Both the position numbers and the translations under genes were made by a program. This document shows positions 12,564 through 59,693 of a DNA stretch of 64,000 nucleotides, piece after piece (position 1 is the stretch's first letter; each line of letters starts with the position of its first letter). The notes below the pieces were generated by a model. The model saw only the letters and a list, made by a program, of their open reading frames with translations. It searched no databases and had not been told where the DNA came from. The DNA is from Candidatus Latescibacterota bacterium (GTDB taxonomy: Bacteria > Latescibacterota > UBA2968 > UBA8231), in the NCBI GenBank assembly GCA_965215195.1, contig CBDCDC010000002.1, positions 2,624,001-2,688,000 of the forward strand, in the 5' to 3' direction.

Positions 12564-13205
12564 TTAGGGCAGCGCGTCAATGCGCCACCTTGAGGTGTTC
12601 GCAATTCGGCTGGCTTGGAACCCGTCGCGATCTATGCGGCGGCCCGAATTGGTGCTGGCTATTGATTCCAAAACGCTCTCCCCTAAGACCTGCTTCTCGA
12701 AGCGATCGTAATACCCTCTCCCATCGGCCTTCACCTTGAAGCGATAATACCCTCTCCCATCGGCCTGCCCCTCAACGTGCTTGCGGCTGACATCAACGGT
12801 GCAACTCTCCCCCGGACTCAACTCCAACCCCACAGAACAGGCCACCATCTCCGCGCCGATCGGCTGTCCAATCCCCTCCGGCAACGCCGGGTCGGAGGGA
12901 TTGGAGATATAGGCTATAAGCAGCCGCACGTCGGTCGAATCGGTCCGACCATCGGCGTTGACATCGCCCAAGGCAATGTCGATTTGGTTGGGAATGGGAA
13001 TGGGCGAATCGGAGCCATACATCGCCCACACCACATCCATCACATCCACGCGCCCGTTGTCGTCAACATCCCCCAAAATACCGCCGGTCATCCCAGCGAC
13101 GACCGGGGCCGACACTGCCAGCCCGACGACAACGGAAAGTAAAGCGTTCATAAGGATAGTCCTTTCTTTGCGGAATCCGACGACAACGGAAAGTAAGGTG
13201 TTCAT
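12564..13205 (-). CDS. Secreted dockerin type I-like protein
   Basis: Signal peptide, paired GDVDDNGRVDVMD / GDVNADGRTDSTDV motifs; alternative start at 13151. Confidence 0.75.
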   Translation of the reverse strand: MNTLLSVVVGFRKERTILMNALLSVVVGLAVSAPVVAGMTGGILGDVDDNGRVDVMDVVWAMYGSDSPIPIPNQIDIALGDVNADGRTDSTDVRLLIAYISNPSDPALPEGIGQPIGAEMVACSVGLELSPGESCTVDVSRKHVEGQADGRGYYRFKVKADGRGYYDRFEKQVLGESVLESIASTNSGRRIDRDGFQASRIANTSRWRIDALP

Positions 13206-13223
13206 AAGGATGGTCCTTTCTTT
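13123..13223. repeat. 54-bp tandem duplication of RBS, start codon and first codons
   Basis: KERTILMN(T/A)LLSVVVG encoded twice; AAAGAAAGGA..ATG at 13205 and 13151 on the minus strand. Confidence 0.9.
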
Positions 13224-13354
13224 AATGGGGGCCAGCCGCTCGGTCGGCTGCAACCCCCGGGTGGAATGTTGGGGGGGCACTTAGGCAGGACGCCCCCACC
13301 AAGGGCAAGAGAGCCGAGATGCCGTTGCTTTCAAGGCGCAACATAGGGTTTTCA

Positions 13355-20030: not shown

Positions 20031-22367
20031 TCACTTGAGATAGATCACGCGGCGCGTCTGCTTCCCGCCCGGATAGTGCAGACATGCCACATAGACGCCA
20101 GCCGCCACCGCAACACCCCGCTGGTCGCGGGCATCCCAAGGAACCTGATATACGCCAGCGGCTTGGACGTGGTCAACCAGTGTGCGCACGGGCTGACCTA
20201 AGACCGTGTAGATCGCCAGCCGCACCGGACCGGGCGCAGCCAAGCGGTAGGGGATCTGGGTAGTACTGTTGAAAGGATTGGGGAAACTGGGATCTAGGCC
20301 GCTGGTGGTCGGCATCGCCGGCTGTGGCGTTCCGGCTACCGCCGTGGCAGTGGGATCGAATAATGGATAGCCGGGATTGCCGGACAGGTTGAGCCGTTGC
20401 AGCGCCGGCAATTCGCTAAACGCATCCGCAGGCAATGTCTCAAGAGCATTGAAGCGCAGATCGAGCCGTTGCAGGGACCTCAGACCGGAAAATACATCGG
20501 CAGACAACGACCTAAGGGCATTGGCGGACAGATCGAGCCATCGCAGGGACCTCAGACCGGAAAACACACCGGGCGACAACGACGCAAGAGCATTGTCCCA
20601 CAGATCGAGCTGTCGCAGCGACGACAGACCCGAAAACACACCCGCAGGCAACAATGCAAGAGTGTTGCCGCCTAGAGAGAGCGTTTGCAGGGACCTCAGA
20701 CCGGAAAACACACCGGGCGACAACGACGCAAGAGCGTTGTCCCACAGAGTGAGCGTTTGCAGGGATATTAGACCGGCGAACATGTCGGCAGGCAACGACG
20801 CAAGGACATTGTTGTTCAGATGAAGCGTTTGCAGCGACGACAGATCGGCGAACACACCGGCAGGCAACGTCTCAAGGACATTATCGTTCAGATGAAGCGT
20901 TTGCAGCGACGACAGATCGGCGAACACATCAACGGGCAACGACGCAAGGGCATTGTCGTACAAATTGAGCCGTTGCAGCGACGACAGATCGGCGAACACA
21001 CCGGCAGGCAACGTCTCAAGGGCATTATCGTTCAGAGCGAGCAATTCCAGCGACGACAGACCCGAAAACACACCAACAGGCAACGTCTCAAGGACGTTAT
21101 CGTTCAGAGCGAGCAATTCCAGCGACGACAGACCCGAAAACACACCAACAGGCAACGACACAAGGGCGTTGTCTTGTAGGTAAAGCCTTGGCAGCGATGT
21201 TAGATCCGAAAACACACCGGGCGGCAACGACCCAAGGGCGTTATCGAACAGAGTGAGCGCCTCCAGTAACGGCAGCCCCGAAAACACGTTTTCCGGCAAG
21301 GACGTGAGAGCGTTACCGGACAGAGTGAGGGATTGCAGTGAACTCAGATTGGAAAACACACCGGGCGGCAACGTCTCAAGGGCGTTGTTGTTCAGGTCAA
21401 GCAATTGCAGCGACGACAGACCCGAAAACACACCAGCAGGCAACGACCCAAGAGCGTTGCTAGACAGAAAGAGCAATTGCAGTGAGGTCAGATTGGAAAA
21501 CACACCGGGCGGCAACGACCCAAGGGCGTTACCGGACAGCCTGAGTCTTTGCAGTGAGGTCAGATCGGCGAACACACCGGCGGGCAATGTCTCAAGGGCG
21601 TTACCGGACAGCCAGAGGAATTCCAGCGACGACAGACCCGAAAACACCCCAACTGGCAAGGACGTAAGAGCGTTATCGGCTAGACCGATCCTTTGCAGGG
21701 ACGACAAACCGCTAAACACATCCGCAGGTAATGACTCAAGACTGTTGTCGGACAGACCGAGCGCTTGTAGGGACGACAAACCGCTAAACACACCCGAAGG
21801 CAACGACCCAAGAGCGTTGCTGGACAGCCAGAGATCTTGCAGGGATGACAGACCGGAAAACACGCCCGCTGGCAACGACTCAAGGCTGTTGTAGGCCAGA
21901 TTGAGCGATTGCAGTGAGGTCAGACCGGAAAACACATCGGGCGGTAACGACTCAAGAGCGTTCTCGTACAGAGTGAGCGTTTCCAGAGACGACAAACCGC
22001 TAAACACACCCGAAGGCAACGACCCAAGAGCGTTGCTGCGCAGAGTGAGCGTTTCCAGAGACGACAAACCGGCGAAATCGCCCGCCTGTAGGCTCGAAAT
22101 TCCTCTATGCCTGAGGAACAGTTCGCCGGTAATCGCGGCAAGTTTCTCTTCGGTCACTCCCGCACAACCGCCGACGCGGGAAGTCCGCTTGAGAATGGCC
22201 TGTTGTACCTGCGGAGTGCGGTCACAGATGCCGCCAGGGGTCGTCTGCGCCCAGGCAACTCCACTAAAAGTCTGGACGAAGAGGACGAAGAAGCAAAGCG
22301 CACCCGCTGCTATAGCTCTATTGGCGGGGACCTCCGTTTTATCCGTCTCAGCAGTTAGCCAGTACAT
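20031..22367 (-). CDS. Secreted LRR protein (about 24 typical-class 24-aa repeats) with FlgD-Ig/T9SS-like CTD
   Basis: LPxGVFSGLSSLxxLxLxxNAL repeats, Cys N-cap ICDRTPQV, C-terminal FPNPFNSTT..Y...G.V.L.IY...GQ.VRTLV; start uncertain (22367 or 22442). Confidence 0.9.
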   Translation of the reverse strand: MYWLTAETDKTEVPANRAIAAGALCFFVLFVQTFSGVAWAQTTPGGICDRTPQVQQAILKRTSRVGGCAGVTEEKLAAITGELFLRHRGISSLQAGDFAGLSSLETLTLRSNALGSLPSGVFSGLSSLETLTLYENALESLPPDVFSGLTSLQSLNLAYNSLESLPAGVFSGLSSLQDLWLSSNALGSLPSGVFSGLSSLQALGLSDNSLESLPADVFSGLSSLQRIGLADNALTSLPVGVFSGLSSLEFLWLSGNALETLPAGVFADLTSLQRLRLSGNALGSLPPGVFSNLTSLQLLFLSSNALGSLPAGVFSGLSSLQLLDLNNNALETLPPGVFSNLSSLQSLTLSGNALTSLPENVFSGLPLLEALTLFDNALGSLPPGVFSDLTSLPRLYLQDNALVSLPVGVFSGLSSLELLALNDNVLETLPVGVFSGLSSLELLALNDNALETLPAGVFADLSSLQRLNLYDNALASLPVDVFADLSSLQTLHLNDNVLETLPAGVFADLSSLQTLHLNNNVLASLPADMFAGLISLQTLTLWDNALASLSPGVFSGLRSLQTLSLGGNTLALLPAGVFSGLSSLRQLDLWDNALASLSPGVFSGLRSLRWLDLSANALRSLSADVFSGLRSLQRLDLRFNALETLPADAFSELPALQRLNLSGNPGYPLFDPTATAVAGTPQPAMPTTSGLDPSFPNPFNSTTQIPYRLAAPGPVRLAIYTVLGQPVRTLVDHVQAAGVYQVPWDARDQRGVAVAAGVYVACLHYPGGKQTRRVIYLK

Positions 22368-22445
22368 CCGTTGCCTGCTTAGAAGCGGTTGAGCTATAAA
22401 AGTGAGGAGCCGACACAAAAGAGGAACAGCCGAACTACTCAATGC

Positions 22446-28596: not shown

Positions 28597-29961
28597 ATGA
28601 TAATCAGATTCTCCGTTGAAAACTGGATGTCTTTCCGCGACCAAGCCACCTTTTCGATGATTGCCAGCCGAGAGCGCCAGCATGGAGAACGCGTTCCCAA
28701 GCTCGGCAAGTACCAAACGAGAGTTCTCCCGATAGCAGCGGTTTACGGCGGTAACGCCTCGGGCAAGACCAATCTTTTCAAGGCACTGAATTTTGCCAAG
28801 ACCCTAATCGTCAAGGGTACTAGACCCGACAGCCTGATCCCGGTCGAGACGTTCCGCTTGGATAGCAAGGGGACGAACCAACCCTCGCGCTTTGTATTTG
28901 AATTGCTGATTGATGAAGTCATCTACGACTTCAGCTTTGCAGTGACCCGAAAGGCGGTCCTAGAAGAAAGACTAGCGGTAATCACCAGTACCAGTGAAAA
29001 AGTGCTCTATGACCGCCGCGACGGAGAAATCAACTTTGACGCATCGCTCGCCAGAGAATTGTTTCTACAGTTCGCTTTCAAAGGGACCCGGGACAATCAG
29101 CTTTTCCTAACCAATTCTGTATCCCAAAAAGTGGACAATTTCAGGCCGGTCTATGACTGGTTCAAGGATACGCTTGTTCTGGTCGCACCTGACTCGCGAT
29201 TTGAGCCCTTTGAGTTGTTCCTTGATGAAAGACATCCATTGTACGCGGCCATGAACGAGATGTTACAACGGCTAGATACCGGGATCGTCCATCTGGGTAG
29301 TGAAGAAATTCCATTAGAGAACATCCCACTTCCCGATCCATTAAAGACCGCGCTTCAGGAAGAAGTGGAAGAAGGCATGACTGTTCGGTTGATGGAGGAG
29401 TCGATTAACGCCCGCTTCATGATCACCCGCGAGGACGGTGAGTTAATCGCCAAGAAAATGGTCTCCTTCCACCCAAAATCGGACGGCACGGAAGCCAAGT
29501 TTGAGATATACCAAGAATCGGATGGATCGCAACGGGTTATTGATCTCCTACCTGCCTTTCTCGAACTTTCTGCACAAACATCGCCGAAAGTCTATGTAGT
29601 TGACGAGATAGACCGCAGTCTGCATCCCTTACTGATCCGCCAACTGCTTGAAGTATACCTAGCTAGTTGTTCCGCAGAGCCTCGGACGCAACTGTTACTG
29701 ACGACCCATAACGTTATGCTGATGGACCAGCAGTTGCTGCGCCGGGACGAAATGTGGGTGACAGAAAGGGATAAGTCCGGCGCGTCCAGCCTGTTTTCCT
29801 TCAGCGAATACAAAGAGGTTCGCTACGACAAGGATCTTCGGAAAAGCTACCTACAGGGACGGCTGGGGGGAATCCCTCGCATTTTGTCGGGGGGCACTCT
29901 CATCAATCCTCATCTCATGGAGGAAAGTGAGGAGATGACGGATGCCGCTGAAAAGACGTAA
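28597..29961 (+). CDS. AAA_21 ABC-type ATPase, RloA-like
   Basis: [54 protein letters not shown]; lower GC, AT-rich upstream region. Confidence 0.9.
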
Positions 29962-30544
29962 TTTCCGCAGACCTCTTGGCGAGCGACGTTACCGAAAACT
30001 TTTTCTTATTGCGACAGAAGGGGTTAAGACCGAGCCGCAGTATTTCGCCATTCTAAATGACCGTTATGCGGTTATCCATGTAGATTGCCTAAAAAGCAAC
30101 TATCACAGCTCACCACTCCAAGTCCTGAAGCGTATGAAAAATCGCCTCAAGCGAAAAACTCTGAAGAATTCAGATGAGGCGTGGCTAGTGGTAGATAAGG
30201 ACCAATGGCAGGATGAACAGTTGGCGCAACTCCACGCATGGTCGCAGGATGCGGATAATTACGGATTCGCCCTTAGCAATCCCAAGTTCGAGTATTGGCT
30301 GCTGCTTCACTTTGAGGACGGTGCCAAGATCAGTTCGCCAAGCGAATGTTCCGTTCGGCTAAAGAAGCATCTTCCCGACTACGACAAGGGCCTTGATGGC
30401 CGAAAAATCACGTCCGGCATGCTCGAAGACGCTATCCATCGAGCCAAGGTTCGCGATAATCCTCCATGCGAGGATTGGCCGCGTACATTCGGTAGCACCA
30501 CAGTGTACAAACTGGTCGAAAACATCCTTAGCGAAAGACCATAA
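29942..30544 (+). CDS. rloB: RloB domain protein
   Basis: [43 protein letters not shown]. Confidence 0.88.
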
Positions 30545-48592: not shown

Positions 48593-49300
48593 TTGCACCT
48601 GCGAGTCCAAAACCTGCAAAAGCGCTACGGCCTAGCGACGGTCCTCGACCTGCCTGAACTCGATATCGACAGCGGTGCTAGCTTCGGATTGGTGGGCAAC
48701 AACGGCGCGGGCAAGACCACCTTTTTGCGCCTCGTCCTCGATCTGATCCGCCCAAGCAAGGGCCAAGTACTGATTAACGGACAGGATGTGGCCCAAGACG
48801 ACGCTTGGAAGGGCTGCACGGGATCCTACCTAGGCCCTGCCTTCCTGATCGACTACCTGACGCCCGTGGAATACATCCACTTCGTCGGCAATCTGTACCA
48901 CATGAGCCCGGGCCAGATAGAAGAAAAATGGGAACACTACCATCCCTTTTTCGGCGATCAACCGCTCAACAGGGGCGAGTATATCCGCAACTTGTCCGAG
49001 GGCAACAAGAAAAAAGTGGGGCTCGTTGCAGCCTTGATGGTCGAGCCGCGGCTGCTGGTACTGGACGAGCCCTTTGCCAATCTCGACCCGACGAGCCAAA
49101 TCCGCCTCAAGGACATGCTAAAAGCGGCCGCCCAAACCGCCGATACTACGCTCATTATCTCCAGCCACGATCTCAACCACATCACCGAGGTCTGCCGCCG
49201 GGTTGCCGTCATTGAGCGCGGCGTCATCGTGCGCGATATCCGCACGGCCCCGGATACGCTGCGGGCATTGGAGCGCTACTTCGCCGTCGAGGAAACGTAA
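48593..49300 (+). CDS. ABC transporter ATP-binding protein
   Basis: GLVGNNGAGKTT, LSEGNKKKVG, LDEPFANLDPTSQ, SSHDL. Confidence 0.92.
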   Translation: MHLRVQNLQKRYGLATVLDLPELDIDSGASFGLVGNNGAGKTTFLRLVLDLIRPSKGQVLINGQDVAQDDAWKGCTGSYLGPAFLIDYLTPVEYIHFVGNLYHMSPGQIEEKWEHYHPFFGDQPLNRGEYIRNLSEGNKKKVGLVAALMVEPRLLVLDEPFANLDPTSQIRLKDMLKAAAQTADTTLIISSHDLNHITEVCRRVAVIERGVIVRDIRTAPDTLRALERYFAVEET

Positions 49301-49394
49301 AACTTTGCCTTGAGCGCTCCCCCAACCCGCGCCGTTCTAGCGGCAAAAAAGGACGTATTCGGGCCCTGTAGCGCGAAACTCACCGCTAAGCAAC

Positions 49395-49429
49395 AAAAAA
49401 AGCGGCCCGGCTCCCAAGCCAGACCGCTT
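49395..49429 (-). terminator. Intrinsic terminator closing the CTD-protein array
   Basis: Minus strand AAGCGGTCTGGCT-TGGG-AGCCGGGCCGCTT followed by TTTTT. Confidence 0.75.
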
Positions 49430-49454
49430 ATCACGCCGCACAAAGTCGAAATGA

Positions 49455-49505
49455 ATGGGGCCTCAATTTGAGGCCCCATCCCACCAACTTGCTGTACAGC
49501 GGCTG
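49455..49505 (-). repeat. Conserved post-stop cassette, copy 1
   Basis: ACAGCAAGTTGG linker, then hairpin ATGGGGCCTCAA/TTGAGGCCCCAT. Confidence 0.8.
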
Positions 49506-52500
49506 CTACCTGAGCAGCAGCATCTTCTTGACTTCGCGGAACTCGCCGCCCGCCTGCAAGTGGTAGAAATACATCCCCGACGACAAGCTATGGCCGCGGT
49601 CGTTCGTCGCGTCCCACTCCACCACGTAGCGACCAGCACTCTGGTGCTCGGCCACCAGCGTCCGCACCGCCTGACCGACTGCGTTATAGACGATCAACTC
49701 CACATCCGCCGCGGTCGGCAACGCATACTGGATCGTCGTCGTTGGGTTGAACGGATTCGGGAAATTGTTCGCCAAGGAGAACGCTTCCGGCCGCGTTTGC
49801 ACTACGGCTTTCGCCGCCTGCTCCGCTCCCGGGTCGCTCAGCGCGATCTCTACCTCGTCGCCTTCTAGCCCATCAATCGTACCGATCAGCCTGATGATCT
49901 CGTCGCCTTCCTCCAAGTTGTCGGCTCTTGGGTCGATGTAAAAATTCACCGTCCCTGTTATCGAGCCGGCCGGAATCTCAATCACAGGCGTAAATAGCGC
50001 GGCGTAGTCCAAATCGCGCGTCGCGGTCGAAGCGTCGTCAATGGCCAAGCGCACGGTCGCGTCCTCTGCCAACGCCTTGCCGTCCAACGTGGCGGTCACC
50101 GCAACAGTGGTCAAAGCGGCATTCTCACTCAACGCGTTCGGATCCGCCGACAGCGAAATGGACGTACTGGGCGTTTCGTCGTCTCGGATCTCAATGTCCG
50201 CCAATAGGGTCTGGCCTGTTGACACGAGCGTGGCCTGCACACCCAAACCCTTCAGACCCTCTTCAGTATCGTCGTTAATGGGCGTGAGGGTCAGAGTCGC
50301 CGTTCCCTCGGTAGTGCCCGCTGGAATGGTGATAAGCGCCTCCAACTCCGCCATGTAGTCCACATCGCGCATCGCGGCTGGGCCGTCGCTGGGAGCCACA
50401 ATGGCAAACCGCACGCTCTCGTCAGCCACTGAGGCGGCCGCCAAGGTAAAAATTAGCGAGACTTCAGTCTCGGCCGCGTCCTCTCGAATCACCGCCGGCT
50501 CTGCCGTCAACCCAGCGGCCACAACCGGGGGCAGCCCAGTTGTACGGACCGTGATGGAAAAGGTCAATTCCGCGGCGTCCCTGTTGCTGTCGGTCACCAT
50601 GTAGGTAACTGGGACCGGACAGTCGGTCGCTGCGGCCGGCGTACCCGAAAGCGTCCGCGTGACCGAGTCAAACGCCAAGCCCGCCGGCAGGGTCAAGACG
50701 CGGTACCGCAGGTCGCCAGCACCGCCCATCGCTTCCGGCAGCACCAAGTCGGCAATAGCCGTCCCCGCCGTGTACGTCTGGTCGGCGATGGAAGCTCTGG
50801 CCGAGAAGGCCAGCACGGCCCCTTTCTCAGCACTTGTAATGGTGAAGGTCAGCATGGCCGTGTCGTCGTCATCGTCAATCGCCGTGTAGGTGACGGTGAC
50901 CGCGCCGTTAGTTGCTTCGGCCGGCGTACCCGAAAGCGTCCGCGTGGCCGAGTCAAACGCCAAGCCCGCCGGCAGGGCTGAGATGCGGTACGTCAGGGTG
51001 CCGTCGCCACCCGAAGCCTCCGGCAGCACCAAGTCGGCAATAGCCGTCCCCGCCGTGTACGTCTGGTCGGCGATGGAAGCTCCGGCTGAGAAGAAAGGCT
51101 CGCCGCCTTCGCCGGGATCTTTCAGCGTTATATCTACAATGCCGACTGTCACCGTGATGTCGGCATCGCCCGCATCGGCGGTGATTTGATTGTTGGCGGA
51201 CGGCACGGTCAGCCTGATTTTCTCGTCGCCCTCCACGATCCCGTCGTCAATAGGGATGACGGTAATCGTCGTCGTCCCCGACACCGAGCCGGCCGGAATC
51301 GTCAGCGGACGCAGTGCTGCCGAGTAGTCTATATCGCGCGTCGCCTCAGCAACGTCGACGACCGTGCCAATAGCGTCCGCATCCTTGGGATCGGGGTCAA
51401 TGGTCAAGAGCACGACCACGTCATCGTCAAACACTTTCCCGTCCAAAGTTCCGGTCACCGCAACATGGGTCGCGCCGGCCCCTTCGCTTATCGTAGCCGG
51501 CTCCGCCGTCAGCGAGATATTCGTGCTATTCGCGTCGTCATCGGCGATGACTATCGTTTTAGTCGCCGATACGTCGCCGATCGCGACTTTTATATATATC
51601 GGCCCTCGCGGAACCACCGCGTTGTCGTCAATAGGGATGAGCGTGAACGTCGTCGTCCCCGACACCGAGCCGGCCGGAATGATGAGCGGCGGACCAAAGA
51701 CCAGCCTGTAATGCACATCGCGCGTCGGAGTGCCCGTCACAGTATCCCCAGACGGCAAGACCGCGCCATCGGGCAAAATCACGAGCCTCACCGTCTCGTC
51801 CTCGATCAAGGCATTCGTCAAGGTGACTTTCAGCTCGATCGTCGTCTCACCGGCGTCCTCGCGCACCCTCTCTTGACTAAGCGTAATGGCATCGGCCGTG
51901 GCCGCGACCTCCTTCCTCATTCTTATATCCACAGGCCTGAGCGTTAGCCCATCGTCTTCGATCTGTATTCCCGGGGCGTCCTCATCGGTATCATTATCAG
52001 GAGACGCTATCCGGATGGTGCCAGGTAACCGATTTTTTGGGGTGAGGATAATGGTCGCCGTCCCGGACACCGAATTTCTCGGAATCGTGAGCGTCTCCAG
52101 CGTCACCGTATAGTCCAAATCGCGCTGCGCTTCGCGATTGTCCTTAGTCGCATCCGCAGCGTCGATAGTGCCGTTGCCATCGGTATCGGCGTTGGGATTG
52201 GCCCCCAAGTCGGGATGATCGCCAATGGTCAAGACGAAACTCGTCGCCTGTCTCAGCACCTTGCCATCCAAGGTTGCCGTCACGGCGATCTCGGTCGCAT
52301 CATCGAACCTATTTAGCTCGACAATATCGACCGACAGATTGATGTTTCTGCTATCCTTGTCGTCGTCAACTAGCGTGATCGTCGTCAGCTCAACCGTCTT
52401 AATGCCAGCATTGCCGCGGATCTCAATAGGAAGGTCTTCGTCAACGACATCATCGTCAATGGGGATGAGGGTGAGGGTCCCCACTGCCTTTTTTTCGCCA

Positions 52501-52787
52501 GCCAGAATTCTGAGAGCGGTCAGCTTTATGCGGAAGCGACTATTGAGCCCCTCATGGGAGACACCCAAGAGCACATACGTATCCGCATCCACCACTGTAT
52601 CATCAGTAACTTCGACTGTCACCTCGATATCGGTCGCACCGGCGTCCTCGCGGACACTACTAGGATTCACCGACAGTTTTAAGTCCGACTGCGCCGCAGC
52701 CTCCCCGCTCCATCCCAACACCCAACCAGCGGCCAACAGCCAAGGCACAGAGGCCAGACGCTGCATCAACAACTTCGCATGTATCAT
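49506..52787 (-). CDS. Large secreted modular protein (Calx-beta-like repeats, putative Ig domains, FlgD-Ig/T9SS-like CTD)
   Basis: GGAG RBS, signal ..GWSGEAAA; P..(V/I)REDA..T.V.V / A.RD.DY repeats; LPAGLAFD..TRTLSGTP; NFPNPFNP..KKMLLLR. Confidence 0.88.
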   Translation of the reverse strand: MIHAKLLMQRLASVPWLLAAGWVLGWSGEAAAQSDLKLSVNPSSVREDAGATDIEVTVEVTDDTVVDADTYVLLGVSHEGLNSRFRIKLTALRILAGEKKAVGTLTLIPIDDDVVDEDLPIEIRGNAGIKTVELTTITLVDDDKDSRNINLSVDIVELNRFDDATEIAVTATLDGKVLRQATSFVLTIGDHPDLGANPNADTDGNGTIDAADATKDNREAQRDLDYTVTLETLTIPRNSVSGTATIILTPKNRLPGTIRIASPDNDTDEDAPGIQIEDDGLTLRPVDIRMRKEVAATADAITLSQERVREDAGETTIELKVTLTNALIEDETVRLVILPDGAVLPSGDTVTGTPTRDVHYRLVFGPPLIIPAGSVSGTTTFTLIPIDDNAVVPRGPIYIKVAIGDVSATKTIVIADDDANSTNISLTAEPATISEGAGATHVAVTGTLDGKVFDDDVVVLLTIDPDPKDADAIGTVVDVAEATRDIDYSAALRPLTIPAGSVSGTTTITVIPIDDGIVEGDEKIRLTVPSANNQITADAGDADITVTVGIVDITLKDPGEGGEPFFSAGASIADQTYTAGTAIADLVLPEASGGDGTLTYRISALPAGLAFDSATRTLSGTPAEATNGAVTVTYTAIDDDDDTAMLTFTITSAEKGAVLAFSARASIADQTYTAGTAIADLVLPEAMGGAGDLRYRVLTLPAGLAFDSVTRTLSGTPAAATDCPVPVTYMVTDSNRDAAELTFSITVRTTGLPPVVAAGLTAEPAVIREDAAETEVSLIFTLAAASVADESVRFAIVAPSDGPAAMRDVDYMAELEALITIPAGTTEGTATLTLTPINDDTEEGLKGLGVQATLVSTGQTLLADIEIRDDETPSTSISLSADPNALSENAALTTVAVTATLDGKALAEDATVRLAIDDASTATRDLDYAALFTPVIEIPAGSITGTVNFYIDPRADNLEEGDEIIRLIGTIDGLEGDEVEIALSDPGAEQAAKAVVQTRPEAFSLANNFPNPFNPTTTIQYALPTAADVELIVYNAVGQAVRTLVAEHQSAGRYVVEWDATNDRGHSLSSGMYFYHLQAGGEFREVKKMLLLR

Positions 52788-52839
52788 TATTAGTCTCCCC
52801 AGGGAACAACTCTCTAATAAGAGTAGGTATGATATTAAG

Positions 52840-52900
52840 AAATAGGGCCTCAAGTTGACGTTTGAGGCCCTATTTTGCTAACTCGCTGTGCCGTGAGTGC
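52840..52900 (-). repeat. Conserved post-stop cassette, copy 2
   Basis: GCACTCACGGCACAGCGAGTTAG, then hairpin AAATAGGGCCTCAA/TTGAGGCCCTATTT. Confidence 0.8.
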
Positions 52901-55900
52901 TTACTTGAGCAACAGCATCTTCTCGACTGCGGCGAACTCTCCCCCGGCCTGCAGGCGGTAGAAATACATCCCCGACGATAAGCTGTGCCCGCTGTCGTCG
53001 GTCGCGTCCCACTCCACCACGTAGCGACCGGCGCTCTGGTGCTCGGCCACCAGCGTCCGCACTGGCTGCCCGACGACGTTGTACACGGTTAGCTCCACGT
53101 CCGCCGCTTGCGGCAGCGCGTATCGGATGGTCGTCGCCGGGTTGAACGGGTTCGGAAAGTTGTTCGCCAACGCAAACGCGGCCGGCAGCGTCTGCAACGA
53201 TAGCGACGCGCTCGCGCCGTTGGCGTCCGTAACCGCGTACGTATATGCGAACTCACCCTCGGCCATCGGCGTACCCGCAATGGTCCGCGTGGCCGCGTCA
53301 AACGACAAGCCCGCCGGCAGGGCCGGCGAGAGGTGATACGTCAGGGGTGCGGTGCCGCCCGAAGCCTCCGGAAGCGCGAAGCTCTCCACGGGCTGGCCAA
53401 CGATGAATTCGCGGATTTCAACCAAGTCGGGCGAGCCCGTCGGAATGACCTTACCGGCCACACTGCCGAACAATTCGAAAAACTTTGCAAAACTCAGCGG
53501 GGGATTGACCGTGATGGAGAAGGTCAACGCGGCCGCGGTGCCATCGCTGTCGATGACCGTGTAGGTGACGACGACCGCGCCATTGGTCGCTTCCGCAGGT
53601 ATGCCCGCAATGGTCCGCGTGGCCGCGTCAAACGACAAGCCCGCCGGCAGGGCCGAGACGCTGTACGTCAAGTCGCCCGTGCCGCCCAAAGCGGCCGGCA
53701 GTACGAGATCGTCAATCGCCCCCTCGGCCGTGTACTCTTGGTCGGCGATCGAAGCGTCGTCCGCGAAGGCAAGGGACGAATCCTTCGGCTCCTGCGGCGG
53801 CTCCGGCTCCGGCTCCTGCGGCGGCTCTACCGTTGCTCGGTCGCTCAGCGTGATCTCCACCTCGTCTCCGACCAGACCTGCAATCGCACCGGTCAGCCTG
53901 ATGGTCTCGTTGCCCTCCGCTACAGTGTCGTCAATTGGTTGGACTGCAAACAGTATTGACCCCGTTATCGAGCCGGCCGGAATCACGAGCAGCGGCTTGA
54001 ACAGCGCCACGTAGTCCACATCGCGCGCCGCTGTTGACGCACCATCAATGGACACGGTCACGGTTGTGTCCTTTAGCAACGCCTTCCCGTTCAACGTAGC
54101 AGTCACCGTAATAGCGGTCTCACCGCCTTCCTCGCTTACCGTGCGCGGACTCGCCGACAGCGAGATGGACGTACTAGGCGTTTCGTTGTCGGCAATTTCG
54201 ATGTCCGTCAATACAGTCGCACCAGAAGCGAATGTAGCTTGCACACCTAACACTCTCGGGCCATTCGCCTCGGCGTTGTCAATGGGGTTCAGGGTGAGCG
54301 TCGTCGTCCCAACGGTAGCACCGGCCGGAATGGTGCTGACCGCCCCCAGTACCGCCGTGTAGTTCAAATCGCGCACGGCCGGCGTACCCGCACTTGGAGC
54401 GACAAGCGTGAACGTCACTCTCTCGGCCGTGGCCTTGGGAGCCGCCATGGTCACGGTCAGGAAAATTTGCGTGGTTTCAGCGTCCTCGCGGATCGACGAA
54501 GGAGCCGCCGTCAGCTCAGCGTCCGCAACCGGGGGCTGGGGCGGCGGCGGCGTCTCAGTCGCCTCGACCGCGATGGAGAAGGCCAACGCGGCCGCGGCCC
54601 CGTCGCTGTCGATCACCGTGTAAACGATGCTGGACGTTCCGGCCACTGTCGGCGTACCCGAAAGCGTCCGCGTGGCCGCGTCAAACGCCAAGCCCGCCGG
54701 CAGGGTCGAGACGCTGTACGTCAGGGTGCTGTCGCCGCCCGTAGCTTCCGGCAGTACGAGCGCGGCAATCGCGGTCCCAACCGCGTACTCTTGATCGGCG
54801 ATCGAAGCGTCGTCCGCGAAGGCAGGGATCTTCGGATCCGGCGGCTCTGGCTGCGGCTCTTCGTCCTCGGTGTCTTTCAGCGTTATCGTCGCTGGAGTGA
54901 CCTCCAGCTCTTGGAGGTCTCCGTCATCATCTTCGGCTATGGGCGGTTTAGACGCCAGCGTCGTCAAGCGGAACTTCTCGTCGTCTTCCTCCCCGTCGTT
55001 GGCGGTGGGCGTGACGGTGAACGTCGTCGTCCCCGACACCGAGCCGCCCGGAATCACCAACGGCCTCGGGATGGCTGTGTAGTCTGCATCGCGCGTCGCC
55101 GCCATATCATCGTCATTCACCTCGCCATCGCCATTAATATCGTTATCAATGACCAAGGGCACGATCACGTTATCGTCGAACACCTTCCCGTTCAAGGTGC
55201 CGGTCACCGTAACCTCGGTCGCACCCGCTCCCTCGTTTATCTCGGCCGGACTCACCTCTAACGTGATCGAATCGCTCGTCGTGTCGTCGTCGGTAATCAG
55301 GATTCCGGTGACGAAGGATTCTTGGGTTCCAACCCTCGCATTCACCTTGAAAGCCCTCGGCGGATCATTGTCTTTGTTGTTGATGGGGGTGACGATGATC
55401 GTCGTCGTCCCTTCTGTCTCGCCCTTGGGAATGATGAGCGGCTGCGGTTCCGCATAGTAATCCACATCGCGCTCCGCATCCACCGCGCTATCGAAAGCCT
55501 CGCCCAGACCGTCGCTGTCGTCATCAATAGTGAACTGCACCTTCTCGTCAGCCAACAAGGCGTTCTCCAAGGAAACTTTCAGGGTGACCTCCTTCGCCCC
55601 CGCGTCCTCGCGGATTGAGAAAGGAGTCGCCGTCAGCCCGGTAATCTCTTTAGCGGGATCGCCCGTTATCTCGATTGAATTAGCATTAACCGTTATGGGA
55701 GTGTCCTCGTCATTAGTTAGGCCGGCGTCAGAATCAGCCTCCACCCAGATAAAGCCGGTTCCGTCGCCCGTTCCTTCGTCCTTGGGGCGGATGATAATCG
55801 TTGCCCTCCCCGACACCTTGCGATCTGGAATGGTTATGGTGGCCATTATCGCAGTGTAGTCCAAATCGCGTCTCAAGCCAGATGCTTCACTTCTTGCTTC

Positions 55901-56872
55901 ATCAATAGTTAAAGAAAAACGCAGATCTTTTCTTTGCTTCTTGCCATTTAGGGTGGCCGTCACCACGATATTGGTTGTACCATCCCTCCTGCTTAGATCG
56001 GCATCAGAGAACGAAAGATTGATCTCACTGCTTTGCTTATCCGTGTCGATCAGCGTAATCGCTGTACTCTTGACGACCCTATCAGCGGCGGCGTTACCCT
56101 CAATCGCGATAGTGAGATCATTGTTGTCGGTTTCTTCACTAATGGGGGTGAAGGCGATCGTCCCGGTCGCCTCTTTCTTGCCCTTCGGAATCAGGAGGGT
56201 GGGCAGCGTTATGCGGAAGCGACTATTGAGCCCTGCGGATTCTCCGAGACCCAAGACCACATACGTATCCACATCCACCGCTGTATCATCAGCAACTCTG
56301 ACTTTCACCGCGACATTGGTTTTACCGGCGTCCTCGCGTACACTATTGGGATTCACCGACAGAATATAGTCCGCCCGCACCGTTATCTCCGATGCAAAAT
56401 ACGTGGGGATAGAACTAGCACCGTCACCGTCGACCTCCACCTTCATCCTTACCCAATACATACCAGTATTAATATCGGCGTCAGTAAAGGTGTGGGTGCT
56501 GTTGCTGCTACTATACTCCGCTTCAGAGCCGCCGATGGGGCCTGAAGCGGTAGTAAGATCAGAAGGAATCGCACCCGAATATAAACCCACCGTGTAGGAG
56601 GTGGCAGGGTTCCCATTATCCGCACCAGTGCCGAAATTCTGCGAATCAGACGTACTCCATTCCACAGTAATCGAATGGGGCCACGCGACCAAGTCATAAG
56701 TCAAAACCAAATTGGGATCGGTGGCATGAGGATGATCCGCCGCAGTGCTATGACCTGACGTAGCGTTCACATCAGCCGCAGCCTCCCCGCTCCATCCCAA
56801 CACCAAACCGACGGCCAGCAGCCAAGGCATGTAAGCCAAGCACCGTATCAACAACTTTGTATATATCATCAC
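52901..56872 (-). CDS. Large secreted modular protein, paralogue with an extra N-terminal domain
   Basis: GGAGG RBS; similar signal peptide and repeat order, three Ig repeats, NFPNPFNP..EKMLLLK. Confidence 0.88.
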   Translation of the reverse strand: MMIYTKLLIRCLAYMPWLLAVGLVLGWSGEAAADVNATSGHSTAADHPHATDPNLVLTYDLVAWPHSITVEWSTSDSQNFGTGADNGNPATSYTVGLYSGAIPSDLTTASGPIGGSEAEYSSSNSTHTFTDADINTGMYWVRMKVEVDGDGASSIPTYFASEITVRADYILSVNPNSVREDAGKTNVAVKVRVADDTAVDVDTYVVLGLGESAGLNSRFRITLPTLLIPKGKKEATGTIAFTPISEETDNNDLTIAIEGNAAADRVVKSTAITLIDTDKQSSEINLSFSDADLSRRDGTTNIVVTATLNGKKQRKDLRFSLTIDEARSEASGLRRDLDYTAIMATITIPDRKVSGRATIIIRPKDEGTGDGTGFIWVEADSDAGLTNDEDTPITVNANSIEITGDPAKEITGLTATPFSIREDAGAKEVTLKVSLENALLADEKVQFTIDDDSDGLGEAFDSAVDAERDVDYYAEPQPLIIPKGETEGTTTIIVTPINNKDNDPPRAFKVNARVGTQESFVTGILITDDDTTSDSITLEVSPAEINEGAGATEVTVTGTLNGKVFDDNVIVPLVIDNDINGDGEVNDDDMAATRDADYTAIPRPLVIPGGSVSGTTTFTVTPTANDGEEDDEKFRLTTLASKPPIAEDDDGDLQELEVTPATITLKDTEDEEPQPEPPDPKIPAFADDASIADQEYAVGTAIAALVLPEATGGDSTLTYSVSTLPAGLAFDAATRTLSGTPTVAGTSSIVYTVIDSDGAAAALAFSIAVEATETPPPPQPPVADAELTAAPSSIREDAETTQIFLTVTMAAPKATAERVTFTLVAPSAGTPAVRDLNYTAVLGAVSTIPAGATVGTTTLTLNPIDNAEANGPRVLGVQATFASGATVLTDIEIADNETPSTSISLSASPRTVSEEGGETAITVTATLNGKALLKDTTVTVSIDGASTAARDVDYVALFKPLLVIPAGSITGSILFAVQPIDDTVAEGNETIRLTGAIAGLVGDEVEITLSDRATVEPPQEPEPEPPQEPKDSSLAFADDASIADQEYTAEGAIDDLVLPAALGGTGDLTYSVSALPAGLSFDAATRTIAGIPAEATNGAVVVTYTVIDSDGTAAALTFSITVNPPLSFAKFFELFGSVAGKVIPTGSPDLVEIREFIVGQPVESFALPEASGGTAPLTYHLSPALPAGLSFDAATRTIAGTPMAEGEFAYTYAVTDANGASASLSLQTLPAAFALANNFPNPFNPATTIRYALPQAADVELTVYNVVGQPVRTLVAEHQSAGRYVVEWDATDDSGHSLSSGMYFYRLQAGGEFAAVEKMLLLK

Positions 56873-56924
56873 TCAACCTCCTTGAGGAAAGCATCCCTAT
56901 AATTGCCTGTTGGTTTATAGTCAG

Positions 56925-57030
56925 GAAATGGGGCCTCTCTCAAACTGAGGCCCCATTTCACTAACTCGCTGTGGCGTGGGTGCTTACTTACTTGAGCAGC
57001 AGCATCTTAACTGCGTGGAACTCGCTCCAT
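56925..57030 (-). pseudogene. Orphan CTD tail (last 12 codons) plus cassette copy 3
   Basis: SEFHAVKMLLLK-TAA, then GCACCCACGCCACAGCGAGTTAGT and hairpin GAAATGGGGCCTC/GAGGCCCCATTTC; no gene body upstream. Confidence 0.7.
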
Positions 57031-57209
57031 TTGTCAAAGATATTGCACAAGCCCTGTCGTAGCAAGCACAGACAAGAATGGACTTTGAAAATTACATGGG
57101 CGGCGAGGGACGGACCGGCGCAGTCTCGCGTCGTATCACCCTCCAGCCGCCGCGAGACTAGTTTCAACAGGCGGAAAAGTGCTTTGAAACCGAATCGGGT
57201 TGAATAGTA

Positions 57210-57269
57210 AAAGGGGACCCCACCTTGCGGTTTGAGGTCCCCTTTCACTAAATCGCTGTGCAGTGGGTG
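57210..57269 (-). repeat. Conserved post-stop cassette, copy 4
   Basis: CACCCACTGCACAGCGATTTAGTG, then hairpin AAAGGGGACCTCA/TGGGGTCCCCTTT. Confidence 0.8.
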
Positions 57270-59693
57270 CTACTTGAGCAACAGCATCTTCTTGACTTCG
57301 CGGAACTCACCACCCGCCTGCAGGTGGTAGAAATACAACCCCGACGACAAGCTGTGCCCGCTGTCGTTGGTCGCGTCCCACTCCACCACATACCGACCCG
57401 CGCTCTGATGCTCGGCCACCAGCGTCCGAACCGCCTGACCAACCACGTTATACACGGTCAGTTCCACGTCCGCCGCCTGCGGCAACGCATACCGGATCGT
57501 CGTCGCCGGGTTGAACGGGTTCGGATAGTTATTCGCCAACGCGAACACCGCCGGCCGCGTCTGCAACGCCACCGGAGCCGGCAGCACCAAGCGGTTGAAG
57601 CCAACGCTGTCATACGTCTGGCTGTCGGTGATCTCGATGACCGTGCTCTCGATCTCCGTCGTCGGCCGGAACACCAAGCTCAGCCCCACCTCCCCGTCGG
57701 AGACCACCGCGCCGTGAGCGACCAGCGCCAACACGCCGGCGTCGTCGGACAGCACCTGCGGGGCAGCCAACGCACTCCCGCCCAGCGGCTGATCGGTCAA
57801 CGCCTCGACGAACTCCAGCTTGTCGGCGTCGTATTGCACCTGCAAGCCGTAGCCCTTGACCGCGACGAAGTCGGCCATGCGCACGTCAAGGACGAAGTCC
57901 TCACCCACGCTGGGCAGCGCCGTGCGCGCATCCACATACAGTCGCGCCTCTGCGTTCAGACCGGCGAACAGGGGCACGCGCTTGCCAGCGGCAGCCGTAC
58001 TGCGACCAAAGTGATCGGCAAAGACGAAGAAATCGTCGAAGTCGATCGCCGCACTCGGTGCCAAGTCAAACGCCGGATCAAAACCAACGTCTTCGGCCGT
58101 CAAACCGAAGAAATCCGCTAGAATGAAGAAGTCGTCGAAGCCTACGCGGTTGTCCGCGCCGAATAGGCCGAAGAGGGCGCGCCCTTCGCTATCGACCACG
58201 CGGTTGCGCACGGCCAGCGCCGTCTGCTCAAGCTCGGAACCCGTCTCGTTGTCTGCGTCGTAGGGCCGCACCTGATAGGTGTAGCGCACCCCGTTGAGCG
58301 CCGTCGCATCGACAAAGGACGCAACGCCGGCATCGACTTGCGCGACCAAGACGAATTCGTCTTCGCCCGCTGCACGGCGATAGATGCCGTAGCCACGCAC
58401 ACCGACGACGGGCTCAGTCGTGGCCGGACCAATGGCTCCGGCCACGACGCCCTGCAAGAGGCGATCAGATGGCGAGAGCGTCCACGTCAGGACGATGCGG
58501 CTGCCCTCGTCGTTGGGCGCATCCAAGACGCGGAGCGACGGCACGGCTTCCGGCGCGATATTGTCGATAGCGCGAACCGGCTCTTCCGTGACGGTGATGG
58601 CCGAATGTTGTATGCCCTCAACCTGCCTCAGCTTCGGGGCCACGCCTTGAGCGAAAGCAAGCGCTTCCGGCAGCAGCGAGGCGAACACCGGCGCATCACC
58701 GGCTTGAGCCGCTTCCCGGCTGGCCAGCAGCGTCTCGGCCATCAACTCGTAGGGCTGGTTCACGTCTGCGGCGCGGACGAATGCGGCCTTCGCAGCATCG
58801 TGCGTGGTGCGGCCTCCGCGCTCGGCGGCAATGCCCCAGTTGGTAGCGACATTGTCGAGCGTGGCGACGATGGCGCGGCCAATCTGCACGCCCGGCACGG
58901 CATCTACCATGGCCCAAGGAACCATCTCGCCGTCCAGCGCGGGTATTTCGCGGAAGATGCGATAACCGTCCAGCGTGTCGTGATCGTCCGACAGGTCCCA
59001 AGTCAGCAGGACAAAGCCGCCTTGGTCGCCAGCACCATCGGCACCCTTGTAGTCTTCGGCCACCAGCACGTCGGGAGCATCCAAAGACTGCTCCACGACC
59101 GCCACGAGGAACGGCAACGGCCGCGAAGCAGAAGCACCGCTGCCGTCCATGACCGTGTACGTAATCACGACAGGTTCGCTCAACTCGGTGGGCGTACCCG
59201 AGATCGTCCGCGTGGCCGCGTCAAACGACAGGCCCGCGGGGAGCCCGGATACGCTATACGTCAGCGGCGGGGTGCCGCCCGTAACCTCCGGCAGCGGCAG
59301 CGGCTCAATCGCCTTGTCCACCTCATACGTCCGTATAGTGTCCGGCAACTTCACCTCAATGCTGAACGGCGGCAACGACGTACTGGCATTGGCACCGTCG
59401 GTCACCGTGTACGTGTACTCCGTGGCCGGGGCCGCCGCTAGCGGCGTACCCGAGATCGTCCGCGTGGCCGCGTCAAACGTCAAGCCCGCAGGCAGGGCCG
59501 GCGCGAGGCTGTAGGTAAGCGGCGGGGTGCCGCCCGCAACCTCCGGCAGCGTCAGCGGCGCTATCGCCGTGCCCACCTCATACGTCAAGATTCCGGTCTC
59601 GTGTTCATCGGCCAAGGCGGTATGAGCACCGGGAAATAGGCCGCTTGCCCCCAAAAGAGCCAGCGAGACAAAAGTCAAAAACGTTCGCTTCAT
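57270..59693 (-). CDS. Secreted protein: 2 putative Ig domains, FN3-like, EF-hand/dockerin-like, cohesin-like, FlgD-Ig/T9SS-like CTD
   Basis: AAGGAG RBS, ATG 59693; VGFDDFFILADFFG / IDFDDFFVFADHFG; VGEDFVLDV..VKGYGLQVQYD..KLEFV; NYPNPFNP. Confidence 0.88.
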   Translation of the reverse strand: MKRTFLTFVSLALLGASGLFPGAHTALADEHETGILTYEVGTAIAPLTLPEVAGGTPPLTYSLAPALPAGLTFDAATRTISGTPLAAAPATEYTYTVTDGANASTSLPPFSIEVKLPDTIRTYEVDKAIEPLPLPEVTGGTPPLTYSVSGLPAGLSFDAATRTISGTPTELSEPVVITYTVMDGSGASASRPLPFLVAVVEQSLDAPDVLVAEDYKGADGAGDQGGFVLLTWDLSDDHDTLDGYRIFREIPALDGEMVPWAMVDAVPGVQIGRAIVATLDNVATNWGIAAERGGRTTHDAAKAAFVRAADVNQPYELMAETLLASREAAQAGDAPVFASLLPEALAFAQGVAPKLRQVEGIQHSAITVTEEPVRAIDNIAPEAVPSLRVLDAPNDEGSRIVLTWTLSPSDRLLQGVVAGAIGPATTEPVVGVRGYGIYRRAAGEDEFVLVAQVDAGVASFVDATALNGVRYTYQVRPYDADNETGSELEQTALAVRNRVVDSEGRALFGLFGADNRVGFDDFFILADFFGLTAEDVGFDPAFDLAPSAAIDFDDFFVFADHFGRSTAAAGKRVPLFAGLNAEARLYVDARTALPSVGEDFVLDVRMADFVAVKGYGLQVQYDADKLEFVEALTDQPLGGSALAAPQVLSDDAGVLALVAHGAVVSDGEVGLSLVFRPTTEIESTVIEITDSQTYDSVGFNRLVLPAPVALQTRPAVFALANNYPNPFNPATTIRYALPQAADVELTVYNVVGQAVRTLVAEHQSAGRYVVEWDATNDSGHSLSSGLYFYHLQAGGEFREVKKMLLLK

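Follow-up and report, generated by a model that had tools for sequence, protein, structure and literature searches.

The array of paralogous genes and its shared 3' ends

We analyzed a stretch of 64,000 nucleotides (nt) from Candidatus Latescibacterota bacterium (GenBank assembly GCA_965215195.1, contig CBDCDC010000002.1, positions 2,624,001 to 2,688,000 of the forward strand; hereinafter, the window) that includes, on the minus strand, an array of paralogous genes for large, putatively secreted surface proteins. The subject of this work is a short module that recurs in the array and runs from the C-terminal tail of the protein across the stop codon into a hairpin. Four such modules, which we denote A, B, C and D, are present in the window where an initial annotation of this DNA had placed them (Table 1). 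The tail has the consensus EF..V(K/E)KMLLL(K/R)-stop and is followed by a linker of about 26 nt that includes ACAGC(G/A)A(G/T)TT(A/G)G and, then, by the hairpin. The linker motif ACAGCRAKTTRG occurs four times in the window, against 0.03 +/- 0.17 expected from 100 shuffles, and a repeat search of the window recovers the C-terminal sorting domain (CTD) together with the module as a three-copy family of 300 nt, and the linker with the 5' arm of the hairpin as a four-copy family of 44 nt.

Table 1. The array, its modules and the additional modules of the same genome. Coordinates are those of the window, unless preceded by C2.
Feature	Coordinates	Strand	Description
Intrinsic terminator past the array	49400..49429	-	Canonical (terminator scan); 13 pairs, 8 GC; T-rich tail TTTTTGTTGC
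Module A	49455..49545	-	Tail codons; TAG 49506-49508; 26-nt linker 49480-49505; 10-12-bp hairpin 49455-49479
Gene A	49506..52787	-	He_PIG/Ig-repeat surface protein with type IX secretion system type A C-terminal sorting domain; Pfam He_PIG and FlgD_ig
Gene A, 5' end	52693..52787	-	Signal-peptide coding; 83% identity over 95 nt with gene B, 56775-56869
Module B	52840..52945	-	Tail; TAA 52901-52903; linker; 13-14-bp hairpin 52840-52876
Gene B	52901..56872	-	Paralog, 1323 amino acids, He_PIG repeats, type A CTD
Module C (orphan)	56925..57023	-	Tail remnant 56991-57023; TAA 56988-56990; linker; hairpin 56925-56959
Module D	57210..57310	-	Tail; TAG 57270-57272; linker; hairpin 57210-57245
Gene D	57270..59693	-	Paralog, about 807 amino acids from the ATG at 59693
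Module G	C2:2589987-2590064		Directly downstream of E, about 32-34 kb before the window
Module E	C2:2592153-2592228		About 32-34 kb before the window
Module F	C2:1633480-1633552		

The initial annotation described the secreted proteins of the array as each closed by such a module, and this is the case for A, B and D; module C, however, is an orphan patch that consists of the last 11 codons of the CTD with a 3-nt deletion, the stop codon, the linker and the hairpin, without an attached gene. The high similarity of the CTD DNA in genes A, B and D, also pointed out there, amounts to 83-88% identity across 94 codons. The separate strong terminator noted there past the array is located between gene A and a convergent gene for an ABC ATPase. 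Gene A likely starts with the ATG at 52787 (MIHAKLL...), about 50 nt downstream of module B, because a longer open reading frame (ORF) that starts with TTG and extends to 52853 would overlap hairpin B.

Profile matches identify the array proteins as putative cargo of the type IX secretion system (T9SS). Against TIGR04183 (cut-off 23), genes A, B and D score 30.2, 36.4 and 31.5 bits, respectively; the Pfam domain FlgD_ig matches the three CTDs with 46.6-48.4 bits against a cut-off of 27, and Por_Secre_tail is borderline, at 22.2-27.0 bits with the same cut-off. The genome also encodes the PorU sortase (NF033707; G000:C2:1739599-1742757), with 628.6 bits against a cut-off of 420, next to a PorV-like match at 147.6 bits, which is under the cut-off of 250. 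Hydrophobic N-termini, with putative signal peptides, are apparent in the family proteins, which are putatively secreted. The stretch that encodes the signal peptide (MIHxKLL..WLLAAGLVLGW) is common to genes A and B and to the paralogs E and F from elsewhere in the genome, and the family, therefore, keeps its 5' ends as well as its 3' ends. Gene D has a different signal peptide, and its product, over residues 42-823, shares 84% identity with residues 1021-1829 of paralog E.

The module belongs to one subfamily of sorting-domain proteins

In this genome of 6.1 Mb, a nucleotide profile search finds seven sense-strand modules, and a covariance model of the module (R1) finds the same seven, its 13 matches being these sites plus six readings of the same palindromes on the opposite strand. 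A tblastn search with the CTD of gene A yields 138 matches in the genome, among which only five, those of A, B, D, E and F, reach 80% identity to the query; the hairpin is shared by paralog G, the CTD of which is only 52% identical. The module, therefore, is a feature of one subfamily that includes these five genes and the diverged G, rather than to CTD genes in general. As to the enrichment after CTD genes that the initial annotation proposed to examine, all seven modules follow a member of this single He_PIG/type A CTD subfamily or its remnant. We rejected the notion that the module marks T9SS cargo at large, given that there are six gene-attached copies and one orphan among the 138 CTD matches. 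Dispersed palindromes of the REP (repetitive extragenic palindrome) or BIME (bacterial interspersed mosaic element) type were considered as well and do not fit, with seven sites in 6.1 Mb, found only after this subfamily or its remnants.

The 3' flanks of the other CTD subfamilies are different, each subfamily having its own. At G000:C2:2367753-2391470, another CTD subfamily has a conserved 3' flank that starts with TAGACACATGAGTCTA and reaches the ribosome-binding site of the next gene, so that such flanks are common among the paralog sets of this genome.

Among the relatives, DNA encompassing the CTD and the module was found in 24 of the 24 genomes of the same genus that were searched and in 31 of 41 overall. 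The scan of the genome and its relatives with a covariance model, which the initial annotation had called for, returned R1 matches in 21 of 22 same-genus genomes, weak matches in 4 of 42 genomes from the other genera of the family, and none in 56 genomes from three other families. No Rfam family matches at the gathering score across the window, or at E <= 1 over 49300-57400.

The hairpin evolves as an RNA structure

We aligned 65 distinct stretches from the stop codon to the end of the hairpin; these rows are related to one another and were gathered with the module profile, so copies without a hairpin are missing from the set. In the 13-bp consensus stem, 98.4% of the cells are paired, and 9 of the 13 pairs have changed on both sides. 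There are 93 cells with double changes, compared with 26.7 +/- 7.5 in shuffles, none of which (0/500) reaches the observed value, and pairing falls to 27-65% when the 3' partner is slid. The compensatory changes that the initial annotation perceived in the window are, then, real and reach far beyond it. Read on the sense strand, the stems include 48 G·U cells and 5 A·C cells, which indicates that the structure under selection is RNA rather than DNA. The core of the stem, GG/CC, is unchanged in 64-65 of the 65 rows. At one stem position, compensation is caught midway: paralog E has T-A, the D-type copy of the closest relative (G018, L022:7388-7463) has G opposite A, and gene D of the window (57197-57272) has G-C.

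The hairpins are predicted to be stable, with folding energies of -18.7 to -26.9 kcal/mol among the modules. In the window, hairpins A, B and D fold at -21.4, -22.3 and -25.7 kcal/mol and match the covariance model with E-values of 1.5e-8, 1.3e-12 and 9.9e-12, respectively.

The linker drifts at a nearly synonymous rate

Mean pairwise identities over 67 CTD-plus-module rows partition the module into segments that evolve in different modes. Identity is 0.83 and 0.86 at the first and second codon positions of the CTD, 0.685 at the third positions, 0.616 in the linker (with 9.6% gaps), 0.78 and 0.79 in the 5' and 3' arms of the stem, 0.53 in the loop and 0.39 in the next 30 nt. Thus, the linker drifts about like third codon positions, which implies no constraint of its own. 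No conserved structure emerges for the linker when the 65-module alignment is folded. In comparisons of this genome with two relatives, the synonymous divergence (dS) of the neighboring ABC and DUF5687 genes is 0.22-0.32, and that among the paralog CTDs is 0.35-0.68; because both are modest, an alignable linker does not require selection. We also considered whether the CTD DNA is unusually conserved across the genus, and rejected this, the dS of A-type CTDs being 0.40 against the 0.22-0.32 of these neighbors.

These rates bear on the possibility that the linker and hairpin are freed as a small RNA (sRNA) derived from the 3' untranslated region (UTR), or are bound by a specific RNA-binding protein, with the sequence of the linker or the stem serving as the recognition part. 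A single-stranded stretch in front of a terminator hairpin is an anatomy that fits 3'-UTR sRNAs, the GG/CC core of the stem is invariant, and, in a relative from genus g9 (G112, L083:786-856), the linker 11-mer CACAGCGAGTT is identical despite a CTD dS of about 0.9 to E, an identity for which a neutral linker offers no explanation. Taken in full, however, the linker is no more conserved than third codon positions; it varies widely inside the genus, has a 6-nt insertion in 9 of 9 G-type copies, and is absent in G051, a genome from another genus, where the hairpin comes straight after the stop. Taken together with the lack of an Rfam match, this makes an sRNA or a protein-binding element very improbable.

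Recombination among the paralogs

The genus as a whole shows synteny at this locus (TonB receptor - amidohydrolase - D - B - A - ABC - DUF5687), which contains three or four family genes, some of them mosaic. The initial annotation had asked whether the order of the array is invariant: the core D-B-A is conserved throughout the genus, yet the copy number varies, and the family paralogs are mosaics. Between genes D and E, identity is 98-100% along a stretch of 1.65 kb that ends 18 bases beyond the stop codon, which is the mark of a conversion tract; past this tract, there are about 10 differences in the next 50 nt, and the similarity stops after the hairpin. Between B and F, an identity of about 0.7 gives way to one of about 0.9 over the final 460 nt. 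The orphan module C lies in a patch of about 108 nt that shares about 95% identity with the 3' terminus of paralog F (G000:C2:1633...), 1 Mb away, and is missing at the same place in G018, where the spacer between D and B is unrelated. In a tree of 69 CTD-plus-module rows, the A-type copies of seven genomes form one clade (Shimodaira-Hasegawa-like approximate likelihood ratio test, SH-aLRT, 97); the three array members of G005 group by genome, as do those of G007, and, in the genome analyzed here, B pairs with F, and D with E. The gain, loss and swapping of genes with common 3' ends that the initial annotation envisaged are, therefore, supported in the form of ordinary recombination among paralogs, as attested by the conversion tract, the orphan patch, the mosaics, the variation in copy number and the amplification in tandem seen in one relative (G004, below).

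In eight relatives, the stop codon of the D-type gene and the family linker-hairpin are 0.4-0.9 kb apart (L026:6014-6803, L030:4962-5408; L027, L029, L032, L034, L036, L038). The gaps, read in six of the eight, contain one or two small ORFs; in a Pfam search covering two of the relatives, one product matches a retropepsin-like aspartyl protease (RVP, 28.3 bits, cut-off 20.7), and the other has a weak match to DUF7921. In four of the eight, a CTD remnant with its own module comes next. The D-type gene in the relatives with a displaced module carries a different, canonical terminator.

The family is expanded in G117, where 17 of the 17 modules examined follow a CTD. In G004, a genome of 4.2 Mb, tandem units with a period of about 148 nt, each comprising tail, linker, hairpin and a spacer of 35 nt, are present in 2-7 copies at 7 of the 7 non-array loci examined. 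Each of these units (L055:3168-4154; L056, L057, L058, L059, L040, L018) includes the last 57 nt or so of the CTD, the hairpin variants alternate, and, in some units, the stop codon has been lost through a TAG to CAG change.

Such observations could be taken to indicate that the module is a site of recombination at the DNA level or a mobile repeat that drives cassette exchange, be it similar to integron attC, to REP or miniature inverted-repeat transposable elements (MITEs), or to a self-amplifying minisatellite: orphan modules exist, the G004 units are amplified in tandem, and recombination tracts end in or beside the module. The resemblance to attC sites and REP/BIME elements extends to imperfectly conserved palindromes 3' of genes and to an array that looks like a set of cassettes. 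Nevertheless, the excess of G·U over A·C points to RNA and not to duplex or cruciform DNA, and none of the 46 ORFs of at least 120 amino acids in the window contains an integrase, recombinase or transposase domain at the thresholds used. The stems are perfect and lack both extrahelical bases and RYYYAAC/GTTRRRY ends, that is, the features and core sites of attC; the seven copies in this genome are tied to a single gene family, the 17 examined in G117 each follow a CTD, and the core order of the array is conserved. We, therefore, rejected the integron or mobile-cassette interpretation, and regard any role of the module as a DNA recombination site or mobile repeat as the least probable of the alternatives considered here.

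A parallel is found in Porphyromonas gingivalis, where domain rearrangement and allelic exchange among T9SS cargo paralogs are described for rgpA, kgp and hagA (PMC5266723). Judging from the portion of that report available to us, the common features include a conserved CTD of about 80 amino acids, adhesin modules present as repeats, combinatorial modularity and, from strain to strain, differing numbers of repeats. The repeats described in that portion are coding, whereas here the shared block passes the stop codon into a 3'-UTR hairpin, and orphan 3' ends remain; furthermore, the present organism belongs to a different, uncultured group.

Terminator or RNA protection element?

The placement of the hairpins resembles that of intrinsic (Rho-independent) terminators. 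In a genome-wide scan, which is a rough guide only because it lets stems absorb T's, the stem begins 19-34 nt past the stop in each of the six gene-attached modules, with energies of -17.9 to -31.6 kcal/mol, compared with medians of 27 nt and -22.5 kcal/mol for the 89 terminator-like hairpins that the scan found behind 2988 long ORFs of this genome. An A tract precedes the stem and T's follow it: the seven modules of this genome have 5-8 T in the 10 nt past the stem, against about 2 expected from composition, and T enrichment at this place is seen in every class of copy. In the relatives, the array-terminal A-type and G-type copies carry TTTTGTGTTT or TTTCCTTTTTT, and the G-type copies end with a run of 6-7 T. 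In the relatives, the A-type copies are situated where two genes converge and look like good terminators in either direction, as bidirectional terminators do. In L030, the gene in the D position has lost the module and has a canonical GC hairpin with a T run right behind its stop codon. In the window, the A/T flanks of hairpin A are degraded (GGGATGGGG...CCCCATTCATTT), and the strong terminator follows behind.

Whereas the anatomy of the module, its covariation, strand asymmetry and distribution, the near-neutrality of the linker and the recombination tracts were observed, we infer that the hairpin acts in termination, and how efficiently it does so; the explanation that we favor, with a probability of roughly 0.6, is that it represents a family-specific 3' stem-loop of the intrinsic-terminator type that has been inherited together with the CTD of an old paralogous family of T9SS cargo. 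Under this explanation, the module would be the common 3' end of an ancient, genus-wide family of adhesin-like, Ig-repeat type IX cargo proteins. The tail of the CTD would be kept by selection at the protein level; the linker of about 26 nt would be a nearly neutral 3'-UTR spacer, a passenger that is still alignable because the copies are related; and the hairpin, with its A tract, GC stem and T tract, would be selected for base pairing in the sense transcript. The module copies would be alike because of common descent, along with occasional gene conversion or patching between paralogs. At array ends, the hairpin would terminate transcription in the normal manner, and in both directions between convergent genes. 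Inside arrays, where it is followed by about three U's, it probably is a leaky terminator that might also shield the 3' end of the upstream message. Most likely, then, the hairpin is a rather weak intrinsic terminator.

Several observations weigh against this explanation. A simple terminator scan of the window (at least 5 T in 8; 19 sites) lists none of the four hairpins; their T runs span 2-4, and those of the 89 terminator-like hairpins span 2-7, with a median of 4. Internal copies, defined by a same-strand ORF start within 250 nt, have on average 5.5 T in the 10 nt past the stem (44 of the 65 rows), compared with 7.0 in terminal copies (21 of 65; Mann-Whitney p = 2e-4), a comparison that treats related rows as independent and in which two were probably assigned to the wrong class. 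In five orphan copies upstream of B-type genes, the stem is kept, TTTC has changed to GCTC, and 2-3 T remain in the next 10 nt. The A/U flanks of the stem covary as pairs, with AU replaced by GC in 2-8 of the 65 rows per pair, which points to base pairing, and not to a free U tract, as the target of selection. The next gene starts only 44-68 nt downstream of the hairpin, so that co-transcription is possible. Finally, the stem sequence is retained in paralog G, where the CTD is saturated at synonymous sites, and in another genus, where the CTD dS is about 0.9 and a manual count gives 21 identical bases among the 24 of the stem; conservation of this kind, across paralogs and into another genus, exceeds what generic terminators usually show. 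The module shares with intrinsic terminators the GC-rich 10-14-bp stem about 25 nt past the stop and the flanking A's and T's, but differs from them in the short U tract (3-4) at most sites, in the covarying flanks and in the persistence of the stem sequence.

The view that the hairpins are plain terminators is supported by their place, stability and A/T flanks and by the replacement seen in L030, and is weakened by the simple scan, the short internal U tracts, the covarying flanks and a stem that outlasts saturated divergence. The proposal of the initial annotation that the module is more than a terminator is the less likely of the two: the linker evolves at about the synonymous rate and is lost in G051, and the hairpin is placed, is stable and is flanked like the other terminator-like hairpins of the genome.

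The specific form of that proposal is that the array is co-transcribed, with the internal hairpins functioning mainly as RNA stability or processing elements, as in malE-malF-type protection, or as attenuators that set the levels of the paralogs. The lower T content past the stem of the internal copies, the short and constant spacers between the hairpin and the next start, the second, strong terminator that closes the array, and the covariation of the flanks as stem pairs all are compatible with such a role. In E. coli, operon-internal protective 3' structures are conserved, and several per operon are possible, according to the part of PMC5927463 at our disposal. Stable, conserved hairpins and short spacers between successive co-oriented genes are common to the array and to the malE-malF REP and menBCE hairpins covered there; unlike the latter, as far as that part goes, the module is T-flanked, the next gene may have its own promoter-like motif, and the array is putatively co-transcribed.

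This motif, AT-rich and TATAAATCAACAGG-like, is present in 19 of the 36 spacers that separate a hairpin from the next family gene, 35-56 nt upstream of the start codon of that gene. It is seen in the window spacers 56873-56924 and 52788-52839, and also in front of the G-type gene, which looks unrelated. The motif may represent a promoter common to these genes or an element of the 5' UTR; if each gene has its own promoter, separate transcription units are favored. In addition to this motif, the enrichment of T past the stem in all copies and the resemblance of the terminal copies to plain terminators speak against stability or attenuation as the main function, which we consider a reasonable minority possibility, more probable than the sRNA and DNA-level scenarios discussed above.

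A related scenario would make the module a family-specific, cis-acting RNA element instead of a generic terminator, at once a leaky terminator and a 3'-end protector, with a stem that is recognized by its sequence, tuning the relative output of the paralogous adhesins within arrays, and with a unit that could be copied alone, having been patched between loci 1 Mb apart in this genome and amplified to 2-7 tandem units per gene in a relative. We consider this scenario unlikely, more so than stability or attenuation and less so than an sRNA.

Other genes in the window

Additional features of the window include two large leucine-rich-repeat proteins (12564-15865 and 20031-22442) and a small protein that matches dockerin. 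Of the two large proteins, the second has a weak FlgD_ig-type C-terminus, and the window, therefore, holds other probable T9SS cargo that is not followed by the module. At 28597-30544, an AAA_21 ATPase (154.6 bits) adjoins an RloB-like protein (130.6 bits), a pair that looks like a small defense-type module.

Implications

The finding reported here is real but mostly ordinary. In the literature on type IX secretion and 3' structures that we searched, and within the portions of the sources accessible to us, no conserved 3' hairpin common to T9SS cargo paralogs is described. The main message is a warning: similarity that extends from the CTD into the 3' UTR reflects paralogy and not a new element. 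For compensatory evolution of bacterial 3' stem-loops, the hairpin is a clean case from nature, with 65 variants and an intermediate between two close genomes. The array shows a surface-protein family of an uncultured lineage diversifying via conversion tracts, mosaic genes and left-over 3' ends. Should it be true that the internal hairpins exceed terminators, they would provide a simple handle on the setting of expression in arrays of secreted adhesins.

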